This document shows, in pieces, positions 21,181 to 31,673 of a DNA stretch of 64,000 bases. Within the stretch, counting starts at the first letter, position 1. Each line of letters starts with the position of its first letter. The stretch is taken from the NCBI GenBank assembly GCA_965230915.1, contig OZ246395.1, forward strand, positions 204,019 through 268,018. The letters are read 5' to 3'. The notes beneath the pieces were generated by a model. The model did not search any database and was not told where the DNA came from. It was given only the letters and a program-made list of their open reading frames with translations. A program made the position numbers and the translations under genes. This stretch comes from an uncultured Candidatus Saccharibacteria bacterium. Lineage in GTDB: Bacteria > Patescibacteriota > WWE3 > 2-01-FULL-39-13.

Positions 21181-21585
21181 TTATACTAATTCTACTTTTG
21201 CTCCAGCTTCTTCTAATTTCTTCTTAGCGTTTTCTGCATCGTCTTTCTTAGCATTTTCTAAGATAGTAGCATCGCCTTTGTCGACTAATGCTTTAGCTTC
21301 AACTAATCCTAAGTTTGAATTTAGTTCGCGAACAACTTTAATAACAGCTATTTTAGTAGCTCCTCCGTCTTTTAAGACGACGTTGAATGAATCTTTTTCT
21401 TCAACAGGTGCGGCTGCTTCGGCTCCTGCTGCTGGACCTGCTGCCATAGCAACTGGTGCGGCTGCTGAAACTCCGAACTTTTCTTCCATAGCTTTTACTA
21501 ATTCAGCAAGTTCTAATACAGTCATTTTTTCTACTGCATCCATAACTTCTTGTGCTGCTTTAGATAGTTTAATTTCTTCTGCCAT
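21181..21585 (-). CDS. rplL: 50S ribosomal protein L7/L12.
   Basis: MAEEIKLS..., Ala/Glu-rich hinge and C-terminal domain '...[39 protein letters not shown]'. Confidence 0.9.
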
Positions 21586-21631: not shown

Positions 21632-22153
21632 TTAAGCTTTCTTTTCCTTGATAGCGTTTAATGCTCTAACAAAATTACCTTGAACTCCCTTACTTGCATA
21701 CATAAAGCCACGGATAGGAGCGTTGAATCCACCCATAACCTGTGCCAATAAAACTTCTCTTGAAGGAAGTTTTGAAAAAGCCTCAACTTTATCACCAGTA
21801 AGTGCCTGACCGTTTAAAACACCCATTATTACTGCACCTTTTTCATTTTTCTTAATGAAATCAAAAAGAATCTTAATAGGTTCAACAACATCATCTGAAG
21901 TAGGTATAACCATAGCGTTTTGTCCTTGTAGGACTTTTTCATCTGCTTTAGCTCCTAATTTTTCGATAATTCTTGAAATTAAGGTATTTTTAACAACTTT
22001 TAATTTAGTGCCAGATTTGGCCAATTCTCCGCGAAGGGCATTGATTTCATTAACGCCAATTTTGGAGTAATTGAATACTACAGTTGTTCCATTTGTAAGC
22101 TCATTTGAAATTTCTTCAACGAGTTGTTTTTTTGCTTCTAAATTTTTGGACAT
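21632..22153 (-). CDS. rplJ: 50S ribosomal protein L10.
   Basis: Typical L10 N-terminus '...VVFNYSKIGVNEINALRGELAKSGTKLKVVKNTL'; lies immediately upstream of rplL. Confidence 0.9.
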   Translation of the reverse strand: MSKNLEAKKQLVEEISNELTNGTTVVFNYSKIGVNEINALRGELAKSGTKLKVVKNTLISRIIEKLGAKADEKVLQGQNAMVIPTSDDVVEPIKILFDFIKKNEKGAVIMGVLNGQALTGDKVEAFSKLPSREVLLAQVMGGFNAPIRGFMYASKGVQGNFVRALNAIKEKKA

Positions 22154-22270
22154 AATTTTTCCTCGGTAGGGTGGGAGGCCAAACAGCCTTTTAACTTGGG
22201 TCCCTACTGTCTATGGAATTAATTGACTGGTGAAAGTTTAAATTGGGTAAATACTTATGTCAATAGGGAT
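22154..22270 (-). promoter_or_regulatory. Candidate rplJ (L10) leader / autoregulatory 5'UTR.
   Basis: 117-nt untranslated gap directly upstream of rplJ, which is the position of the L10-leader RNA motif in other bacteria. Structure was not verified. Confidence 0.3.
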
Positions 22271-23650
22271 TTATTCAGGCTTTGGGAGCCTTGTTCCATA
22301 TAAGTCAGCTATCATCCAAGCAAAATGGAATGCAATATTTTGATCTAATATATAAGCTTTTTTACCTCTGATTTGAGTAAGTAGTGGGTCGATTTCTAGG
22401 TCAAATGCACCTTTAAAGGTAGTTCTATTTACTATATGTTCGATCATCTGCCTTGTTTCTGTATCTTCACCATTTAGAGTTCTCTGGAGTTCGCGCTTTG
22501 TACCTTTAAATCCGTTTGGGTCACCTTTAACAACAATATGGGAACATCTACGTGCTAGGGTAGCGAAAACTTCTTGCCATGTGATTTTCTCTGTTTTGGT
22601 AGCTCTTTCAGGATAACTAACTGTGTTGCCATCTACGCCGGATTTTATTTGAAGTAGGTCGATAAAAGGTAAAATGTCATATCGTAAATACAAATTTAGC
22701 AAAGCATCCATAGGTGATAGTCCGAGGGCATTTGAATAAAGTACGCTAACAGGTCTATATGGATGGTCGGCTTTGTATTTTATTGCTTCAGATGGATTAT
22801 AAAAAGCCATAGTCGCTTCTCTAAACATTAGCGAGTATAAAGTATGTGCCTGTTCTGAAAATTTATGAGATGGGGTTATCGCAAATTCAGTTGTTATATC
22901 ATTAACCACGCGTATAAGTGCTAGTCTATATTGTTCTATGCTTTCTGCATTTCCTAATATATTCGAAGCATATTCAAAGGCTTTCTCCCATCTTTCTATT
23001 AGTGGAAGTGTTTTAGGAGCAATAATAGGCGAGCGTGTTGTGATAATTTTTATGGGTAAATCACGGTCTATAGCTTCCGGCCAGTTATCTTTTAGTGATC
23101 GCCTAAATGGGTGGTATGCTGAGCCACCGTACCATTGCTTAAGAAGCGTGGCAGCATCGTGTTGAACTTCCAATGAGCCTTTTTTCCCGGATGAAATTCG
23201 GGGAGCAAAACTTGACCATGATATTACAAGTCTATCTCTGAGTTGCCCAATATCTTTTGATGCTGCCTTAGCAAGTTCCTCTCGGTTCTTATTATATGCT
23301 GGAGTTGCTATGTTTAGTTCTGATAGGTGTAACTGTGATTTAGATTCGGGCGTAAGAGGCTCGTTACTATCACTTGTTTCTATTTCTAATTTTTTATCTG
23401 CTTCATAGTTGTCCGTAGACCGGAAAAATCTGCTTCTTAATGTATATTTCCGTTCTTGGCGAGGGCTCATTGTATAGACCTCTACTTTTGGATGATCAGC
23501 GTCGGGTTCTGGGAACGTTTCAATTGGTGGTTCATCAGTATATTCGGTCGGCTGTTGTGGATAGCCAGTTGGGTAATTGTATCCTTGTATTGTCTCAGGC
23601 TGTTCTTCTGGCAGATCTTCGTTTGGGAAATTTTCAAAATCATTTAGCAT
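22271..23650 (-). CDS. Hypothetical protein (459 aa) with an acidic, Pro-rich, disordered N-terminal ~120 aa and a ~340-aa globular C-terminal domain. No recognisable motifs.
   Basis: Long intact ORF with host-like codon usage, sitting between rplA and rplJ on the same strand. I recognised no known family. Confidence 0.7.
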   Translation of the reverse strand: MLNDFENFPNEDLPEEQPETIQGYNYPTGYPQQPTEYTDEPPIETFPEPDADHPKVEVYTMSPRQERKYTLRSRFFRSTDNYEADKKLEIETSDSNEPLTPESKSQLHLSELNIATPAYNKNREELAKAASKDIGQLRDRLVISWSSFAPRISSGKKGSLEVQHDAATLLKQWYGGSAYHPFRRSLKDNWPEAIDRDLPIKIITTRSPIIAPKTLPLIERWEKAFEYASNILGNAESIEQYRLALIRVVNDITTEFAITPSHKFSEQAHTLYSLMFREATMAFYNPSEAIKYKADHPYRPVSVLYSNALGLSPMDALLNLYLRYDILPFIDLLQIKSGVDGNTVSYPERATKTEKITWQEVFATLARRCSHIVVKGDPNGFKGTKRELQRTLNGEDTETRQMIEHIVNRTTFKGAFDLEIDPLLTQIRGKKAYILDQNIAFHFAWMIADLYGTRLPKPE

Positions 23651-23726
23651 TCTAATTTATCGAGGATTCTAGCAAATGATTTTTATGTTGCAAGTTTTAG
23701 TGAATTTAAAGCCTGGGTTATAGTGA

Positions 23727-24560
23727 TTACGCTACAATCTTTACGCTAGGGCTCATAGTTGAGCAAACGTATACACCAGTTATGAATTTTTTCTTTATTT
23801 TAGCCGGAGTATTTTTGTTAAGTTCAGCTAATAGGTGAGAAATGTTAGCAACCAATTCTTCGTCTTTAAAGCTTAGGTTTCCAACTGTTTGGTGGATAAC
23901 CGCATGGCTTGGTTGTGTTTTAACTTCGATTTGGCCTTTAGATAATTCTTCAATAGCTTTCTCTGGTTTGTCTGTAACAGTGCCTGTCTTTGGTGAAGGC
24001 ATTAATCCTTTTGGACCTAAAATTTTTGCGGCTTTAGCAATGTCTTTCATGGTAGCAGGGGTAGCAATAACGATATTAAAATCTGTGTCAGCTTTTAATT
24101 TTCCTGAAACAATTTCATCAACAGCTGAAGCATCTCTGTAAGTTACATCACCTTTAGTTCCGGAATTTTCTGTTCCGATAACAAGAATTTTTACTTTTTT
24201 GCCAATTCCATGAGGTAAAGTGGTGATAAATCGAACTCTTTGATCAGATTTTGATTTGTCGATTCCCAAGTTGATATGAAGTTCTACAGATTCGTTGAAT
24301 TTTGCGTATGCAGCTTTTCTGATTTCTTTTACCGCCTCAGAAACTGATACTGATTTATCTTTATTTAATGCTTTTCTAGCAGCAGTATATTTTGCTCCAC
24401 GAGTTTTTTTAGCACCTTTTTTAATCATAGCCTTCTTTTTAGGAGCTTCTTCTACGGTTTCAGGTTTTGTAGTTTCTACTGGCTCAGTAGGAATAGCCAT
24501 ATCTGCTAAGTTTTCTAGCGCTTCTGGAGTTACTGATTTGTCGACGATTTTTTTAGCCAT
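23727..24560 (-). CDS. rplA: 50S ribosomal protein L1 with a ~44-aa N-terminal extension, or an alternative start at internal Met45.
   Basis: '...AKFNESVELHINLGIDKSKSDQRVRF...LPHG...KVKILVIG...' L1 core. An 8-nt gap to rplK supports the long form. Confidence 0.85.
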   Translation of the reverse strand: MAKKIVDKSVTPEALENLADMAIPTEPVETTKPETVEEAPKKKAMIKKGAKKTRGAKYTAARKALNKDKSVSVSEAVKEIRKAAYAKFNESVELHINLGIDKSKSDQRVRFITTLPHGIGKKVKILVIGTENSGTKGDVTYRDASAVDEIVSGKLKADTDFNIVIATPATMKDIAKAAKILGPKGLMPSPKTGTVTDKPEKAIEELSKGQIEVKTQPSHAVIHQTVGNLSFKDEELVANISHLLAELNKNTPAKIKKKFITGVYVCSTMSPSVKIVA

Positions 24561-24568
24561 GTTTATAT

Positions 24569-24988
24569 TTATGCTTCAACTTCTACACCCATACTTCTTG
24601 CTGATCCGGCAATTATTTTCATTGCTTGTTCGACGCTGTTAGCGTTTAGGTCAGGCATCTTCTTTTCAGCAATTTCTCGAAGCTGAGCTTGAGTAATTTT
24701 GCCGATTTTTGTTTTATTAGGTTCTCCTGATGCTTTGTCTTTTCCGATAGCTTTAAGAATTAAGCTGGTTGCAGGAGGTGTTTTAAGAATAAATGTGAAT
24801 GATCCGCCTTCGAAGATTGTGACTTCAGCTGGAACAATTCCATCCATACCTTGAGTTCTTTGATTGAATTCAGTACAGAAAGCCATAATCTGAACTCCGT
24901 GTTGACCAAGTGCTGGTCCGATAGGTGGAGCTGGATTAGCTTTTCCGGCTTGAATATTTAATTTTAGGATTGTTTTAACCTTTGGCAT
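24569..24988 (-). CDS. rplK: 50S ribosomal protein L11.
   Basis: [42 protein letters not shown]... canonical L11. Confidence 0.9.
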
Positions 24989-25044: not shown

Positions 25045-25632
25045 TTATGCTGGCTCTACTTGTGTAAAGTCAACTTCGACAGGAGTTTCGCGATCGAAAA
25101 CAGAAACTAATACTTCTAAACGACCCTGATCTGTCATAACCTTGCTGACTTTTCCTAAGAAATCCTTGAAAGCACCAGCATTAATCTTAACTGCATCTCC
25201 TTCTTTGAATTTGGCTTCAAATCTTGGAGCATCTAATTTCATAAATTTAACGATAGAATCAACTTCTTTTTTAGAAAGTGGAGTAGGGCGGTTTCCGATT
25301 CCGACGAATCCGGTAACTCCTGGAGTAGTTCGAATTGCGTGCCATACATTATCGTCTATAACAGCTTTTACCAAGATATATCCTGGGAACATACGTTCGT
25401 CGACTTCTTTCTTTTTACCGCTAGAAATAACGATTTTCTTTTGTGTAGGAATTAAAACTTCATTAATGCGGTCAGTAAGATCCATAACACGGACGCGTTC
25501 CCCTAAAGTAATAGCGACCTTTCTTTCGTGACCTGAATAGGTGTGAACCACAAACCATTTTGCTTCTGGATTTGGTCTATCTGTAAATTTTAAGCCTGTT
25601 GGGGCTTCCATTTGGATTGCTTCTTCTGCCAT
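25045..25632 (-). CDS. nusG: Transcription termination/antitermination factor NusG.
   Basis: 'KWFVVHTYSGHERKV' NGN domain and C-terminal KOW 'FKEGDAVKINAGAFKDFLGKV'. Position is between secE and rplK. Confidence 0.9.
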   Translation of the reverse strand: MAEEAIQMEAPTGLKFTDRPNPEAKWFVVHTYSGHERKVAITLGERVRVMDLTDRINEVLIPTQKKIVISSGKKKEVDERMFPGYILVKAVIDDNVWHAIRTTPGVTGFVGIGNRPTPLSKKEVDSIVKFMKLDAPRFEAKFKEGDAVKINAGAFKDFLGKVSKVMTDQGRLEVLVSVFDRETPVEVDFTQVEPA

Positions 25633-25643
25633 TTCTTTTTTAA

Positions 25644-25823
25644 TTAAATGAATGCTTTAAATACTGCACTAAAAACGTAGTCTAATAGACCCATATAAAT
25701 GCTGACGATAAGACTAACAATAATAACAACCTGCGTCAATCTTATAGTTTCTTTTCGAGTAGGCCAAATTACCTTTTTTAATTCGTCTCGAGTTTCATTT
25801 ATGAATTTACTGGGATTAAACAC
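25644..25823 (-). CDS. secE: Preprotein translocase subunit SecE (59 aa, below the ORF-track cutoff). Probable GTG start.
   Basis: Manual translation of the minus strand gives VFNPSKFINETRDELKKVIWPTRKETIRLTQVVIIVSLIVSIYMGLLDYVFSAVFKAFI*. This is the conserved 'ELKKVxWPxxxE' SecE motif plus a single TM, directly upstream of nusG. Confidence 0.5.
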   Translation of the reverse strand: MFNPSKFINETRDELKKVIWPTRKETIRLTQVVIIVSLIVSIYMGLLDYVFSAVFKAFI

Positions 25824-25891
25824 TGCACTAGTATAGCAAGTAGCTATCTATATTGCTATACGGTACTTGCTCTTTTTCATGTTTTGCCATG

Positions 25892-25990
25892 AAAGTAGCA
25901 AACCAGCTGTTAAATAACTAGATGAACGTTTGCTCTTTCGCCGTTTTCGCAAAAAGTAGCAAACAAGCCATTATCTGACTAGACGAACAT
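25892..25990. repeat. Two imperfect 38-nt direct repeats (25892-25929 and 25953-25990; 30/38 identical; consensus AAAGTAGCAAAC-AGC--TTA--T-ACTAGA-GAAC-T) plus flanking inverted repeats, in the secE / ORF-26254 divergent intergenic region.
   Basis: Direct sequence comparison. Nearby palindromes are TTTCATGttttgcCATGAAA (25875-25894) and GTTTGCT...AGCAAAC (25928-25964). Confidence 0.5.
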
Positions 25991-26253
25991 ATAGTGGAAA
26001 ACTCATAGTAAAGTCTGTATAATTCCTGACGGACCAAATCCAAGGTGCTTGGATCTCGTCCAGCAAGGTTCTTAATAAAATTAAGAGAAAGTGAGTCGCA
26101 AAATGCGTCGCAAGCCAGATTCCGATAAGTAAAATACGGATGGCGAAGTAAATCCTCCATAGCTTCTCTTAGGGGAGCAGTTCGGCATAAGGGCCAAAAT
26201 CCTTATATCAACTGCTCTCCTGGTTATTTTCTATTTCAAAATTTTCTGTAATA

Positions 26254-26961
26254 ATGGCTGATATGAGTTCGATGGCAGATCTTTTAGCAGAAGATCTTCA
26301 AGAAGATTTAGAAGAGCCCAAAAATATCCCACCTCAAAACGTTAACCCTCAAAATCAACTTTCTATAGAAGAACAAAATAAATTGCCTCCAATTGGCGAA
26401 GATATCCAATGTATTACCCATGCCTGCATTGAACAATTAAATGGATTAAATTTGCCTCCGAATAATTCAAGTTCTGGAGTATATCTTGTGTGTAGCAATA
26501 TTTTGCATGTCCAACACGCAGCCGCTGTTGAATATGCAAAACAGTATGAAAATGGGTTAGTACCATTTGACCATTTTATGAGAGATATTCTTCCGATAAT
26601 TAAAGCTGAAGATGCAAGGTTATTTTCGAATTATGTAAATATTTTTGATTCGCTAGAGGGTCGAAATGATAGGGTAATAGGAGGTAGTTTTTACGATAGA
26701 GTATCAGTTTTAGCTTCTATAATTACATTTAAAGCTAGATGTGAGCACCAGGCTGCTATATGGGAAACAACCGACAAGTTTTGGTATTTTGCCCAAGAGG
26801 TATATCAGAAATATGCCTTATATGAAGACAAGATTTCACATCTTAATACAACCGATTCTGAAAAGGCCGGATTTAAAGAGTGGCTTCTTCTAAATTTTCC
26901 TAAAAATATAATCAGCGCGTGGGTTTCTTCTATTAGAGCTCAACCTCAAGCAGCTGTATAA
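26254..26961 (+). CDS. Hypothetical protein (235 aa) with an acidic N-terminus.
   Basis: ORF only; no recognised motifs. Confidence 0.55.
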   Translation: MADMSSMADLLAEDLQEDLEEPKNIPPQNVNPQNQLSIEEQNKLPPIGEDIQCITHACIEQLNGLNLPPNNSSSGVYLVCSNILHVQHAAAVEYAKQYENGLVPFDHFMRDILPIIKAEDARLFSNYVNIFDSLEGRNDRVIGGSFYDRVSVLASIITFKARCEHQAAIWETTDKFWYFAQEVYQKYALYEDKISHLNTTDSEKAGFKEWLLLNFPKNIISAWVSSIRAQPQAAV

Positions 26962-26992
26962 ATTTTCATTTAATACATATACAATAAATTCA

Positions 26993-27451
26993 ATGCCACA
27001 CTATAAAGAGAACGATAAAGAATTAGAAAAAATTATATCGCCATCCGGTTTTGAAGATCGAAAGCCACTTACTGTAAAAGAAGCTGCAAAAACATTCCGC
27101 TTACACCGCGTGTCGGTTAAAAATGCTTGGAACGGCGTGGTTACGGCATTCTTAACACAACCAAACTTCAGAATACATTTAGTGTTCTTTTTACTTGTAA
27201 CTTTAATGAGTTTTTATTTTCAAATAACACTTTTTGAGTACGTTTCGATCGTAGTGGTTAGTGCTCTAGTTATAGTTTGTGAAATGGTTAATACCGCTGT
27301 CGAGGCCGTTAGTGACGAAGTCGCTCAAGGTGAGTACAGAAGATTAATCGGAGTTGCAAAAGATGTTGCAGCGGGGGCAGTTTTGCTTTCAGCCTGTTTT
27401 GCCATTTTAGTAGCCATATTAATTTTTGGACCAAGAATCATAGCAATTTAG
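26993..27451 (+). CDS. dgkA: Diacylglycerol/undecaprenol kinase (DgkA family).
   Basis: 'NFRIHL...' , three TM helices, 'EMVNTAVEAVSD' and 'AKDVAAGAVLL' DAGK_prokar motifs. Confidence 0.75.
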   Translation: MPHYKENDKELEKIISPSGFEDRKPLTVKEAAKTFRLHRVSVKNAWNGVVTAFLTQPNFRIHLVFFLLVTLMSFYFQITLFEYVSIVVVSALVIVCEMVNTAVEAVSDEVAQGEYRRLIGVAKDVAAGAVLLSACFAILVAILIFGPRIIAI

Positions 27452-28308: not shown

Positions 28309-28384
28309 GCCTGGATAGCTCAGTTGGTAGAGCACGTCCATGGTAAGGACGGGGTCCCGAGTTCAAATCTCGGTTCAGGCTCCA
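28309..28384 (+). tRNA. tRNA-Thr (anticodon GGU), CCA encoded.
   Basis: Manual cloverleaf: acceptor GCCTGGA/TTCAGGC, D-arm TAGCTCAGTTGGTAGAGCA, anticodon stem CGTCC/GGACG with loop ATGGTAA, T-arm CCGAGTTCAAATCTCGG, discriminator T then CCA. Confidence 0.9.
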
Positions 28385-28415: not shown

Positions 28416-28491
28416 GCCGTTTTAGCTCAGTTGGTAGAGCAGCGGTTTTGTAAACCGCAGGTCCTGAGTTCGAGCCTCAGAAACGGCTCCA
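28416..28491 (+). tRNA. tRNA-Thr (anticodon UGU), CCA encoded.
   Basis: Acceptor GCCGTTT/AAACGGC, anticodon stem GCGGT/ACCGC with loop TTTGTAA, T-arm CTGAGTTCGAGCCTCAG, then T-CCA. Confidence 0.9.
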
Positions 28492-28607
28492 TTTTTCACC
28501 CTAATCACAGACCTATAGTATTGCAATTTTCCTGGTTTTAATTTATAATTATGCCCGCTAATCTAAATTAGCAGCGGAAATTCTACTCACTATGAAGGAG
28601 AGAAAAG

Positions 28608-28988
28608 ATGATCGCCGTAGCACCAGGTATAGAGGTTGAGATGGATGGTTCTGTCGTCGACGAGGCGCCAGTTGTTGTTCGGTCGCCCTTTTCGATGGGC
28701 TACGTTGGGCATGCGACATGGAAGCCATTACGGAACTTTCTTCTTAATCGCGCCGACTTACCGTTCGAAAGGATCCTGGCCTTAGGCCGGCACCTCGGCA
28801 TTGCCGAAGGCGCACTATGGGCCGAAGGGATCAACTTGGGGATTCCCAAGAATCGTCGGTATCGTTTTGTTTCGAACTTTGTAACCGCCGTCATGGCTGA
28901 CGCCAAGCCTCCTGTTGGAGCCGATGGCAAACGGCCTAAGTACGACAAGTTCGCGACGTTGAAAAAGCTCAAGGCCGCAATCGCCTAG
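28608..28988 (+). CDS. Hypothetical protein (126 aa) encoded by a conspicuously GC-rich gene (~55% GC, high GC3), likely horizontally acquired.
   Basis: Strong SD GAAGGAGAG 7 nt upstream. Codon usage (GTC GTC GAC GAG GCG CCA...) is unlike neighbouring genes. Flanked upstream by tRNA-Thr and a near-palindrome CCGCTAATctaaATTAGCaGCGG (28555-28577). Confidence 0.6.
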   Translation: MIAVAPGIEVEMDGSVVDEAPVVVRSPFSMGYVGHATWKPLRNFLLNRADLPFERILALGRHLGIAEGALWAEGINLGIPKNRRYRFVSNFVTAVMADAKPPVGADGKRPKYDKFATLKKLKAAIA

Positions 28989-29002
28989 AGCTAATCCGCT
29001 TG

Positions 29003-29761: not shown

Positions 29762-30433
29762 ATGAAAGCATTAGTAATCGACGATGATCCTCGAATAGTT
29801 CGAAGACTCCAACGTATTCTAAAAGACGAATATGTGGTCGATATTGCTCAAAGTGCTTCAGCGGGCGAAAAACTCGCTTACAATTCTCATTACGACATTA
29901 TTTTGCTCGATCTAATGCTTCCTGATATGGATGGTTTAGATTTATGTTCTGTCCTTAAGACAAATACGAAGGATATTCCTATAATGATTATTTCTGATAA
30001 AAATTCGATTGCCGATATCGATCGTGCATTCGATAAAGGGGCCGACGATTACTTAATGAAACCTTTAAATGTACGAGAATTAAAAGCTCGAATGAAGGCC
30101 TTATTGCGGCGTGTTGCCAGATCAGAAGACTTATATAGTAAGACTTTAACTCTTCGTAATTTAATGTTTGATAGGTCTCGAAAAGCCTTGTTTTACAACG
30201 AAAAAAGGGTTGCGCTGCGAAAAAAAGAAATGCAGTTAATCGAGTTTCTAATGGTAAACAAAGGTAGGGTTTTAACTCGTGGTGAAATTTTGGAACACGT
30301 TTGGGACGCTGATATCAGCGTATTCACAAATACGGTCGACGTACATATGAAACGTTTACGAGACAAAATAGAGAAGCCTTTTAATGAAAAGTATATCGAA
30401 ACCGTTCATGGTCTAGGTTATATTATTGAGTGA
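29762..30433 (+). CDS. OmpR-family two-component response regulator (REC plus winged-helix trans_reg_C). No cognate kinase in the window.
   Basis: 'ALVIDDDPRIV...DIILLDLMLPDMDGLDLC...IPIMIISDKNSIADIDRAFDKGADDYLMKP' and C-terminal '...VHMKRLRDKIE...IETVHGLGY'. Confidence 0.85.
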   Translation: MKALVIDDDPRIVRRLQRILKDEYVVDIAQSASAGEKLAYNSHYDIILLDLMLPDMDGLDLCSVLKTNTKDIPIMIISDKNSIADIDRAFDKGADDYLMKPLNVRELKARMKALLRRVARSEDLYSKTLTLRNLMFDRSRKALFYNEKRVALRKKEMQLIEFLMVNKGRVLTRGEILEHVWDADISVFTNTVDVHMKRLRDKIEKPFNEKYIETVHGLGYIIE

Positions 30434-30809: not shown

Positions 30810-31673
30810 ATGAAATGGCAGAAAGCAGACCTTACTACACAGTTCAAAATGATCGATGGAATGAATATAGATCCACCTCTAGAAAAGCTTTATTTTTCAG
30901 GTGAAATACCCGATTTAGATAACGCTATCGCAGTTGTTGGGTCTCGTAAGGTCTCAGATTACGGCAAAAGAGTGTGTCGCGAATTTGTTTCGGTTATGGC
31001 AAAAGCTGGGCTTACTATAATTAGTGGATTAATGTATGGAATCGATATCGAAGCTCATAATGCGGCCATTGATGCCGGAGGGAAGACTGTCGGAGTTTTG
31101 GGCTATGGCCACGATTATTTACGTAATTATGGTTATGCCCAAAATCTATATGAAAAGATTCTAGCTACAAAATCAGGTGCAGTGATTTCAGAATATGAGC
31201 CAAGCGAGCCTGCTGCTAAATGGACATTTCCAAAAAGGAACCGCATTATTTCTGCTTTATCTAAAGCAGTTTTAGTAATAGAAGGTGGAGAAAACTCAGG
31301 TAGCTTGATAACAGCTGGATATGCAGTAGAGCAGGGTAAAGAGGTTTTTGCAGTTCCCGGCTCTATATATAATGTGAATTCGAAGGGAACAAATTGGCTT
31401 ATAAAGCAGGGAGCCCACATGGCGACTTCACCTGAAGATATATTATTATTCTTTGGAAAACCTTTGCCTAATAAAATAGACAAAACAAAATTAAGTGAAA
31501 CAGAGCAGCAGATTTTACAAATTATAGAATCGCTAGATCAAAATACTACGGCATCAAAAATAGCCGATATTTCAGGACTTTCAGTAGGAGATTTAAACGC
31601 AAAGTTGTCAAAACTGGAACTTATGGGGTATATTGCCCGAGGTAATTTTGGAAAATTTACGATTTTAAAGTGA
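30810..31673 (+). CDS. dprA: DNA processing protein DprA (Smf), competence/recombination mediator.
   Basis: 'AVVGSRKVSDYGKRV...GLMYGIDIEAHNAAIDAGGKTVGVLGYGHD' Rossmann-like DprA core, and a C-terminal winged-helix-like region. Confidence 0.85.
   Translation: MKWQKADLTTQFKMIDGMNIDPPLEKLYFSGEIPDLDNAIAVVGSRKVSDYGKRVCREFVSVMAKAGLTIISGLMYGIDIEAHNAAIDAGGKTVGVLGYGHDYLRNYGYAQNLYEKILATKSGAVISEYEPSEPAAKWTFPKRNRIISALSKAVLVIEGGENSGSLITAGYAVEQGKEVFAVPGSIYNVNSKGTNWLIKQGAHMATSPEDILLFFGKPLPNKIDKTKLSETEQQILQIIESLDQNTTASKIADISGLSVGDLNAKLSKLELMGYIARGNFGKFTILK

Follow-up and report, generated by a model that had tools for sequence, protein, structure and literature searches.

In Escherichia coli the genes rplKA and rplJL(-rpoBC) are served by separate promoters, PL11 and PL10, and rplJ is preceded by the L10 leader. 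No gene is known to lie between rplA and PL10 in E. coli or in most other bacteria. Here we analyse a gene that occupies this junction in an uncultured Candidatus Saccharibacteria bacterium. The gene is an open reading frame (ORF) of 459 amino acids (aa), which we call ORF459, in a stretch of 64,000 nucleotides (nt) of contig OZ246395.1 (GenBank assembly GCA_965230915.1, positions 204,019 to 268,018). We refer to this whole stretch as the window, and all coordinates are window positions. ORF459 lies on the minus strand at 22271–23650, including its stop codon, and starts with ATG. The order of genes on the minus strand is secE-nusG-rplK-rplA-ORF459-rplJ-rplL, all of them co-directional.

Bacterial pangenomes reportedly contain chromosomal hotspots where variable accessory cargo sits between conserved core genes, as Oliveira, Touchon and Rocha are said to have described in 2017. 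The ORF459 locus resembles such integration or recombination hotspots: the core flanks (rplA and rplJ) stay the same, the cargo differs, breakpoints lie at the borders, and the tree of the cargo is discordant. It differs from them because one gene alone fills the slot, because the slot interrupts an rplKAJL cluster that is normally contiguous, because within the subclade it is filled by divergent alleles of one family and not by unrelated islands, and because neither an integrase nor a tRNA is involved. In the pneumococcal capsule locus, between dexB and aliA, alleles are replaced by natural transformation via the conserved flanks. Our locus shares with the capsule locus deeply divergent alleles at a fixed site, shuffling relative to the flanks and a competent lineage. 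Unlike the capsule locus, it encodes a single, predictedly cytoplasmic protein instead of a surface-antigen pathway, and the case for exchange comes from six loci.

At the rplA-rplJ junction we observe a slot architecture, patchy presence of the gene, alternative cargo, extreme divergence and discordant trees. On balance, we lean towards reading ORF459 as a lineage-restricted, dispensable and hypervariable accessory gene in a recombination slot flanked by core genes, with a conflict-type role as the likeliest one for its product. The architecture would then combine the rplKA/rplJL split of E. coli with a core-flanked hotspot in which transformation mediates allele exchange, both of which are known. 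Unusual here are the location of the slot within an otherwise contiguous rplKAJL cluster and an occupant family without a recognisable fold.

ORF459 is a genuine, expressed-looking gene. It is real because its codon usage is native, because independent assemblies are identical and because intact homologs share its motifs. Codon usage correlates with that of the other window genes at r = 0.71 in frame, versus 0.11 and 0.16 out of frame. The GC content of the gene (0.39) and its GC content at third codon positions (0.27) are native, which rules out a recent foreign insertion. By our own arithmetic, the chance probability of a 459-codon open frame at 39% GC is about 5e-14 per start; upstream of the ATG the frame stays open for two codons only. 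Over 2.4–3.2 kb including ORF459, two Logan contigs from two other sequencing runs (L090 and L091) match the window at 100% identity, which rules out an assembly artefact. Intact homologs of 340–535 aa occupy the same site in five related lineages.

A preliminary description of this DNA, made from its letters, had reported a co-directional 459-aa ORF between L1 and L10. The ORF coordinates bear this out, as do family matches of the two neighbours. The upstream flank rplA (23727–24560, minus strand; ribosomal protein L1, 277 aa) matches Pfam PF00687 Ribosomal_L1 with E 2e-43. The downstream flank rplJ (21632–22153, minus strand; L10, 173 aa) matches NCBIfam NF000955 with E 6e-43. A frameshift, which the same description had named as a sign against its proposal, was not found; reading frames are intact in every lineage sampled. 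It had also characterized the N-terminus as acidic and Pro-rich and the rest of the protein as unrecognisable, and it was right on both counts. The N-terminal region (aa 1–131, 23258–23650, minus strand) has a net charge of -14, with 21% Asp plus Glu and 11% Pro, and is probably disordered. Nothing in Pfam, NCBIfam, PHROG or PADLOC matches the window protein or any of the four full-length alleles, and PDB sequences gave no match either, in phmmer with the window protein or with the family profile.

Between alleles, the N-terminal region varies in length from about 10 to about 185 aa in our alignments. A short acidic-aromatic motif (..[DG]FE..) sits at its extreme N-terminus, where M1, F5 and E6 are invariant in three alleles. 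The remainder is a conserved domain of about 330 aa (aa 132–459, 22274–23257, minus strand), delimited in an alignment of four alleles. Over the roughly 330 domain positions, the four full alleles have 20 invariant residues in common, a set enriched in P, G, W, R, D, K and T that falls into short motifs. The domain carries the motifs LP[IV]x[IV]Ix2R, RP[VI]S, SxPxxxTKxxxxxW and [IV]V[KRN][GA]D. PD-(D/E)xK, methyltransferase and HEPN motifs seen by eye were ruled out, as the candidate residues are not invariant across alleles. The target of a diversity-generating retroelement is an unlikely identity because divergence spans the whole gene; no search aimed at a reverse transcriptase was made. 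No allele has a signal peptide or a transmembrane segment, and the product is predicted to be a cytoplasmic protein. The AlphaFold check proposed in the preliminary description was run and gave no usable fold: the predicted local distance difference test score (pLDDT) was 35.5 for the single sequence and 40.2 with a three-sequence alignment of the domain. With low confidence, the model suggests a mixed alpha/beta domain. A Foldseek search against PDB with the pLDDT-40.2 model gave a best E of 0.05 and template modelling scores of 0.2–0.33, none of them significant.

The family is small. A word-indexed search of 5.8 billion clusters returned the ORF459 protein itself as its sole match. When 1.84 billion representatives were scanned exhaustively with HMMER, two relatives emerged: P0002 (535 aa, 41% identity, E 2e-59) and P0003 (340 aa, 27% identity, E 3e-21). 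A profile search produced no further members. Clustered at 50% identity, about 15 billion proteins contain three clusters of this family. Additional members were found through contigs carrying close L10 orthologs. The locus L078/L079 encodes a 388-aa member (hhalign against the family, probability 98.8%, E 9e-17), L092 a C-terminal fragment of a member that is 48% identical to the L078 protein, and L080 a 29-aa C-terminal remnant at the contig edge, which resembles the L078/L092 type. The hidden Markov model of the family detected no paralog at other places of the window or in the loci fetched. Members occur in one small subclade of Saccharibacteria, delimited by an L10 identity of at least 83%, and outside it no relatives could be detected; the suggestion of a lineage-specific novelty in the preliminary description is supported. 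A literature search found no earlier description of this rplA-rplJ junction.

We surveyed the rplA-rplJ junction in twelve lineages, ordered by L10 identity to the window. The ORF459 family occupies the junction in six of them and other cargo in three, and in the remaining three the junction is empty. Another 72 loci, from a metagenome scan by L10 alignment, belong to unrelated bacteria (at most 40% identity) and were not used for synteny; the baseline for the rplA-rplJ gap from these loci comprised 7 usable ones and was not relied on. The family is present in the window together with L090 and L091 (L10 100%), in L092 (96%), in L005 (92%), in the JGI contig that encodes P0002 (88%), in L078/L079 (83%) and, as a remnant, in L080 (83%). 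In all six lineages the gene is found between rplA and rplJ, in the orientation of both. The next lineage, L001 (80%), has nothing but 111 bp at the junction. The synteny comparison suggested in the preliminary description gave a divided answer: the insert occurs in most close relatives, hence is not absent from all of them, and is missing in L001.

Further out, the junction holds other genes or none. L081 (L10 75%) carries a MazE-fold antitoxin and a PIN toxin, confirmed by Pfam. L082 (59%) carries a PIN gene, a 100-aa gene and a NUDIX gene on the opposite strand, and L083 (55%) nothing but 250 bp. L084, L086 and L087 (54%) carry four opposite-strand genes, including an OGG/HhH-GPD glycosylase, and the P0022 lineage L093–L098 (49%) has an empty junction of 108 bp. 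Because of these contents of the relatives' junctions, we take the compact junction as the ancestral state; the rplA-rplJ boundary of Saccharibacteria has repeatedly gained different accessory genes. The variable region that holds the family also harbours toxin–antitoxin genes in relatives, namely MazE/PIN (L081) and PIN/NUDIX (L082) at the junction and BrnT/CopG beside rplL (P0002 contig). ORF459 resembles systems of the VapBC type (a MazE-fold antitoxin with a PIN toxin) in that such a module occupies the same junction in the sister lineage L081, and a PIN gene that of L082. Unlike these, ORF459 is a single gene, has neither a PIN nor an antitoxin domain and has no PADLOC match.

Two side observations concern the surroundings of the junction. 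On the P0002 contig, JGI 3300050046, the BrnT toxin and CopG-like antitoxin pair lies directly downstream of rplL. In L085 (Logan SRR23814899; from the 54%-identity lineage) DnaJ and TrmB-like genes replace rplA upstream of the cargo block, which indicates a rearrangement with its breakpoint at this same junction.

The inserted gene is far more divergent than its neighbours. Between subclade genomes, identity is 90–97% for NusG, 77–90% for L11, 65–80% for L1, 72–96% for L10 and 78–86% for L12. Between the same genomes it is 21–49% for the inserted gene. BLASTN homology to every relative ends at the rplA stop (23726/23727) and resumes between 22242 and 22263, at the rplJ promoter. For L078, L001, L081 and L005 the upstream breakpoint coincides exactly with the rplA stop. 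The exchangeable cassette spans roughly 22250–23726.

The gene also has a history different from that of its flanks. In neighbour-joining trees with bootstrap, the window groups with L092 for L10 (94%) and for L12 (99.6%). In the tree of the inserted gene the same grouping receives 0%; there L078 groups with L092 (100%) and the window with the JGI contig (99.6%). The alleles of the window and L092 are 21% identical despite a private leader insertion that the two loci have in common. The window, L005 and the JGI contig are independently discordant: L10 of the window is 92% identical to that of L005 versus 88% to that of the JGI contig, and the gene 28% versus 40%. In the L10 tree, L078 is the partner of L001, which has no copy of the gene. 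Hence there was either a loss in L001 or more than one gain. We regard ORF459 as dispensable, since this nested relative lost it or never had it.

The slot has predicted regulatory signals on either side. The predicted promoter of ORF459 (23666–23693, minus strand) reads TTGCAA-16 nt-TGcTAGAAT, with an extended -10 element and 9 of 12 matches together with the TG. It lies 15 nt before the ATG, and from its position the transcript would apparently have a very short leader or none. The window, L005 and L078 all have a 15-nt core, CAT(C/T)TG(C/A)TA(G/A)AATC, 10–15 nt ahead of the start codon, although the surrounding DNA is unalignable. We infer from these sequences that the promoter may be active.

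Downstream, the spacer between the ORF459 stop and rplJ is 117 nt long (22154–22270) and holds a promoter and the L10 leader. The rplJ promoter resembles P_L10 (22235–22263, minus strand; TTGACA-17 nt-TAAACT, 10 of 12 matches) and begins 7 nt after the ORF459 stop. Both its hexamers are conserved in the window, L005, L078, L092 and L080 as well as in the insert-free L001. The leader (22154–22234, minus strand) forms a hairpin, GUAGGG...CCCUAC, with an AGACAG/GGGACCCAAGUUAAA motif. Its match to the Rfam model L10_leader RF00557 scores 30.9 bits (E 0.021), under the gathering score of 44. An RNAalifold alignment of 8 relatives shows compensatory changes at 4 of 9 pairs of the hairpin, the AGACAG...GGGACCCAAGUUAAA core is conserved among relatives, and the centroid fold gives the same helix. 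In the outer stem UCC pairs with GGA, the Shine-Dalgarno sequence of rplJ. Unlike the Firmicutes-type Rfam model, to which it matches below threshold, the leader lacks the terminator part, and it appears to mask the rplJ Shine-Dalgarno sequence instead of terminating. Promoter and leader are equally conserved in L001. As in E. coli, a separate promoter and a structured L10 leader stand directly upstream of rplJ, with or without the insert. As a detail of the leader, the window and L092 have in common a 12–13-nt loop insertion that forms an extra GGCC...GGCC stem (window 22175–22195; L092 about 520–545), and the other relatives are without this extra hairpin.

The anatomy of the junction is alike in the window, L005 and L078. 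The rplA stop is followed by a short spacer, the extended -10 element, 10–15 nt and the ATG. At the other end, the stop of the ORF is followed by 5–15 nt, TTGACA-17-T(T)TAAACT, the leader, GAGGA and the rplJ ATG. A promoter and terminator scan detected no terminator at the junction, including the part between ORF459 and rplJ. Judged by these elements, ORF459 would sit at the boundary of two transcription units (rplK-rplA and rplJ-rplL) and not inside one operon. The preliminary description had placed the gene inside a single operon, which has to be corrected: the gene is bounded by the stop of rplA on one side and by the conserved promoter of rplJ on the other. Its putative 117-nt L10 leader downstream of the gene holds up, given the sub-threshold Rfam match and the compensatory changes.

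We propose that ORF459 is cargo that fills a slot at the boundary of the rplK-rplA and rplJ-rplL units. Whole alleles would be replaced by homologous recombination, with the conserved ribosomal protein genes serving as homology arms, and natural transformation would be the route of exchange. Whole-allele replacement is both the simplest and the most likely cause of the discordance between the gene and its flanks, and we infer recombination as the route. Transformation is mechanistically plausible because the window encodes DprA, a recombination mediator of natural transformation (30810–31673; DNA_processg_A, E 3e-62), and because competence has been demonstrated in Saccharibacteria: they are naturally competent and were shown experimentally to recombine linear DNA with arms of about 1 kb (PMC10633639). 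If our proposal is true, the rplKAJL cluster of this clade holds a recombination slot with an exchangeable, hypervariable gene. Such a slot would illustrate, in compact form and in nature, how transformation shuffles alleles in ultra-small epibiotic bacteria, and it would be a candidate entry point to the largely unknown defence or host-interaction repertoire of Saccharibacteria. Natural transformation now allows Saccharibacteria to be engineered, and the conserved flanks could serve directly as homology arms.

Cytoplasmic proteins with this kind of evolution and shuffling typically take part in genetic conflict, for example, in phage defence, in immunity or as effectors. Conflict-type roles would favour rare alleles. 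Most likely, ORF459 would function in phage defence or immunity, or in the interaction with the host bacterium; a role at the ribosome is less likely. Only tentatively do we suggest something more specific, a new class of conflict proteins in epibiotic Saccharibacteria. The gene could by itself confer phage defence or immunity, or could encode an effector that targets the Actinobacteria host; an advantage of rare alleles would keep deeply divergent alleles in the population, and natural transformation would shuffle them by way of the ribosomal flanks. Less likely is a strain-specific modulator of the L10/L12 stalk that docks via the acidic-aromatic N-terminus.

Several points weigh against the slot with a conflict gene. 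The sample is small, with six loci carrying the gene, and several of these come from metagenomic contigs of short length. The discordance depends above all on L092, a 3.4-kb Logan contig that could be a chimera across the conserved rplJ. Part of the fast divergence could stem from relaxed constraint and not from diversifying selection. Because the gene and rplJ always point the same way and no terminator was detected, read-through into rplJL is possible, and with it some functional coupling with the ribosomal stalk genes. The evolutionary behaviour of the gene and the toxin–antitoxin modules at the same site elsewhere are all that points to a conflict role; no match in PADLOC, PHROG, Pfam, NCBIfam or PDB and no usable structure points to a function.

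If relaxed constraint were the whole explanation, ORF459 would be a young, vertically inherited orphan with little or no function, drifting rapidly to loss without any exchange of alleles. Orphan genes are common in this phylum, and a merely drifting one would be an ordinary finding for candidate-phyla genomes. Extreme divergence, a length that varies between 340 and 535 aa and the loss in L001 would all be expected of such a gene. A second, unrelated orphan slot beside secE suggests that orphan genes generally come and go quickly in these genomes. However, the frames are intact in every lineage sampled, 20 residues are invariant over about 330 positions, and the promoter element is retained. 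Drift alone does not explain the strongly supported discordance either. We regard this explanation as unlikely.

Discordance and patchy presence would also follow if the gene were a selfish, site-specific element, that is, a free-standing homing-type gene or a mobile remnant that targets the rplA/rplJ intergenic region and would spread as it cuts empty sites. T4-like phages have free-standing homing endonuclease genes between conserved genes. ORF459 resembles these in being solitary, wedged precisely between two highly conserved genes and patchily distributed. Unlike them, it has no GIY-YIG, HNH or LAGLIDADG domain and no relatives in phages. No nuclease, integrase or transposase domain was found in any allele. 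Neither terminal inverted repeats nor a target-site duplication flank the gene; we found only short repeats at chance level, the best inverted pair being 15 nt long, 80% complementary and AT-rich. A transposon or insertion sequence is ruled out, since there are no repeats and no transposase. Relatives were absent from 50,697 phage records and 72,556 plasmids searched by tblastn, as well as from the viral contigs of an IMG/VR scan. Codon usage and GC content are native, and neither the window nor any fetched locus holds a second copy. Homology to a mobile or selfish gene, which the preliminary description had named as a possible outcome that would speak against its proposal, was looked for in all alleles and not found. 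We hold a selfish element to be distinctly improbable.

The preliminary description had suggested, as one of two readings, a ribosome- or translation-associated factor, co-transcribed with the ribosomal protein genes; such a factor would be made together with L10 and L12 and act on the stalk or on translation, and its position would be kept for co-regulation. The unchanged place and orientation of the gene directly before the promoter and leader of rplJ in each of the six lineages that have it, the lack of a detected terminator before rplJ and an acidic-aromatic N-terminal motif that could be a docking peptide all fit this idea, but it is very unlikely and not supported: the gene is absent from the nested L001, which groups with L078, and from all more distant Saccharibacteria sampled; toxin–antitoxin modules, NUDIX and OGG genes use the same junction; an identity of 21–49% versus 72–96% for the ribosomal partners is hard to square with a conserved binding interface; the gene has a conserved predicted promoter of its own; and its tree is discordant with those of L10 and L12.

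The remaining genes of the ribosomal cluster are secE (25644–25823), nusG (25045–25632), rplK (24569–24988) and rplL (21181–21585; L7/L12, 134 aa, with matches to Pfam PF00542 and PF16320), all on the minus strand. The L1 protein encoded by rplA has an N-terminal extension of about 55 residues that is rich in Lys, Glu and Ala. The bacterial L1 model TIGR01169 matches residues 55–276 with 211.4 bits, just below its cutoff of 216.3. In the more distant lineage L093–L098, L1 is 228 aa long.

Three consecutive giant ORFs (3414, 1779 and 1740 aa) occupy 107–21113, convergent with rplL. The last of them contains DUF2341 and six Laminin_G_3 domains and has a homolog at the same position in L078, L001 and L092. 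The giant ORFs are probably surface adhesins.

The second variable orphan-gene slot (25843–27022) adjoins the opposite end of the ribosomal cluster and is bounded by secE and a DAGK gene. It contains two ORFs, at 26254–26961 on the plus strand and at 25918–26160 on the minus strand. The 235-aa ORF of this slot likewise has an acidic N-terminus, matches nothing in Pfam, PHROG or PADLOC and has no BLAST similarity to the differing orphan ORFs that L078, L081 and L001 carry at this place.

Near dprA, an OmpR-type response regulator is encoded at 29762–30433. An island of 54–55% GC (28600–29000; the window mean is 39%) lies directly 3' of two tRNA-Thr genes (28309–28384 and 28416–28491). It holds a 126-aa ORF (28608–28988, plus strand) without a Pfam match, and no Rfam family matched. 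The island is possibly foreign DNA that integrated beside a tRNA, or an unrecognised structured RNA.

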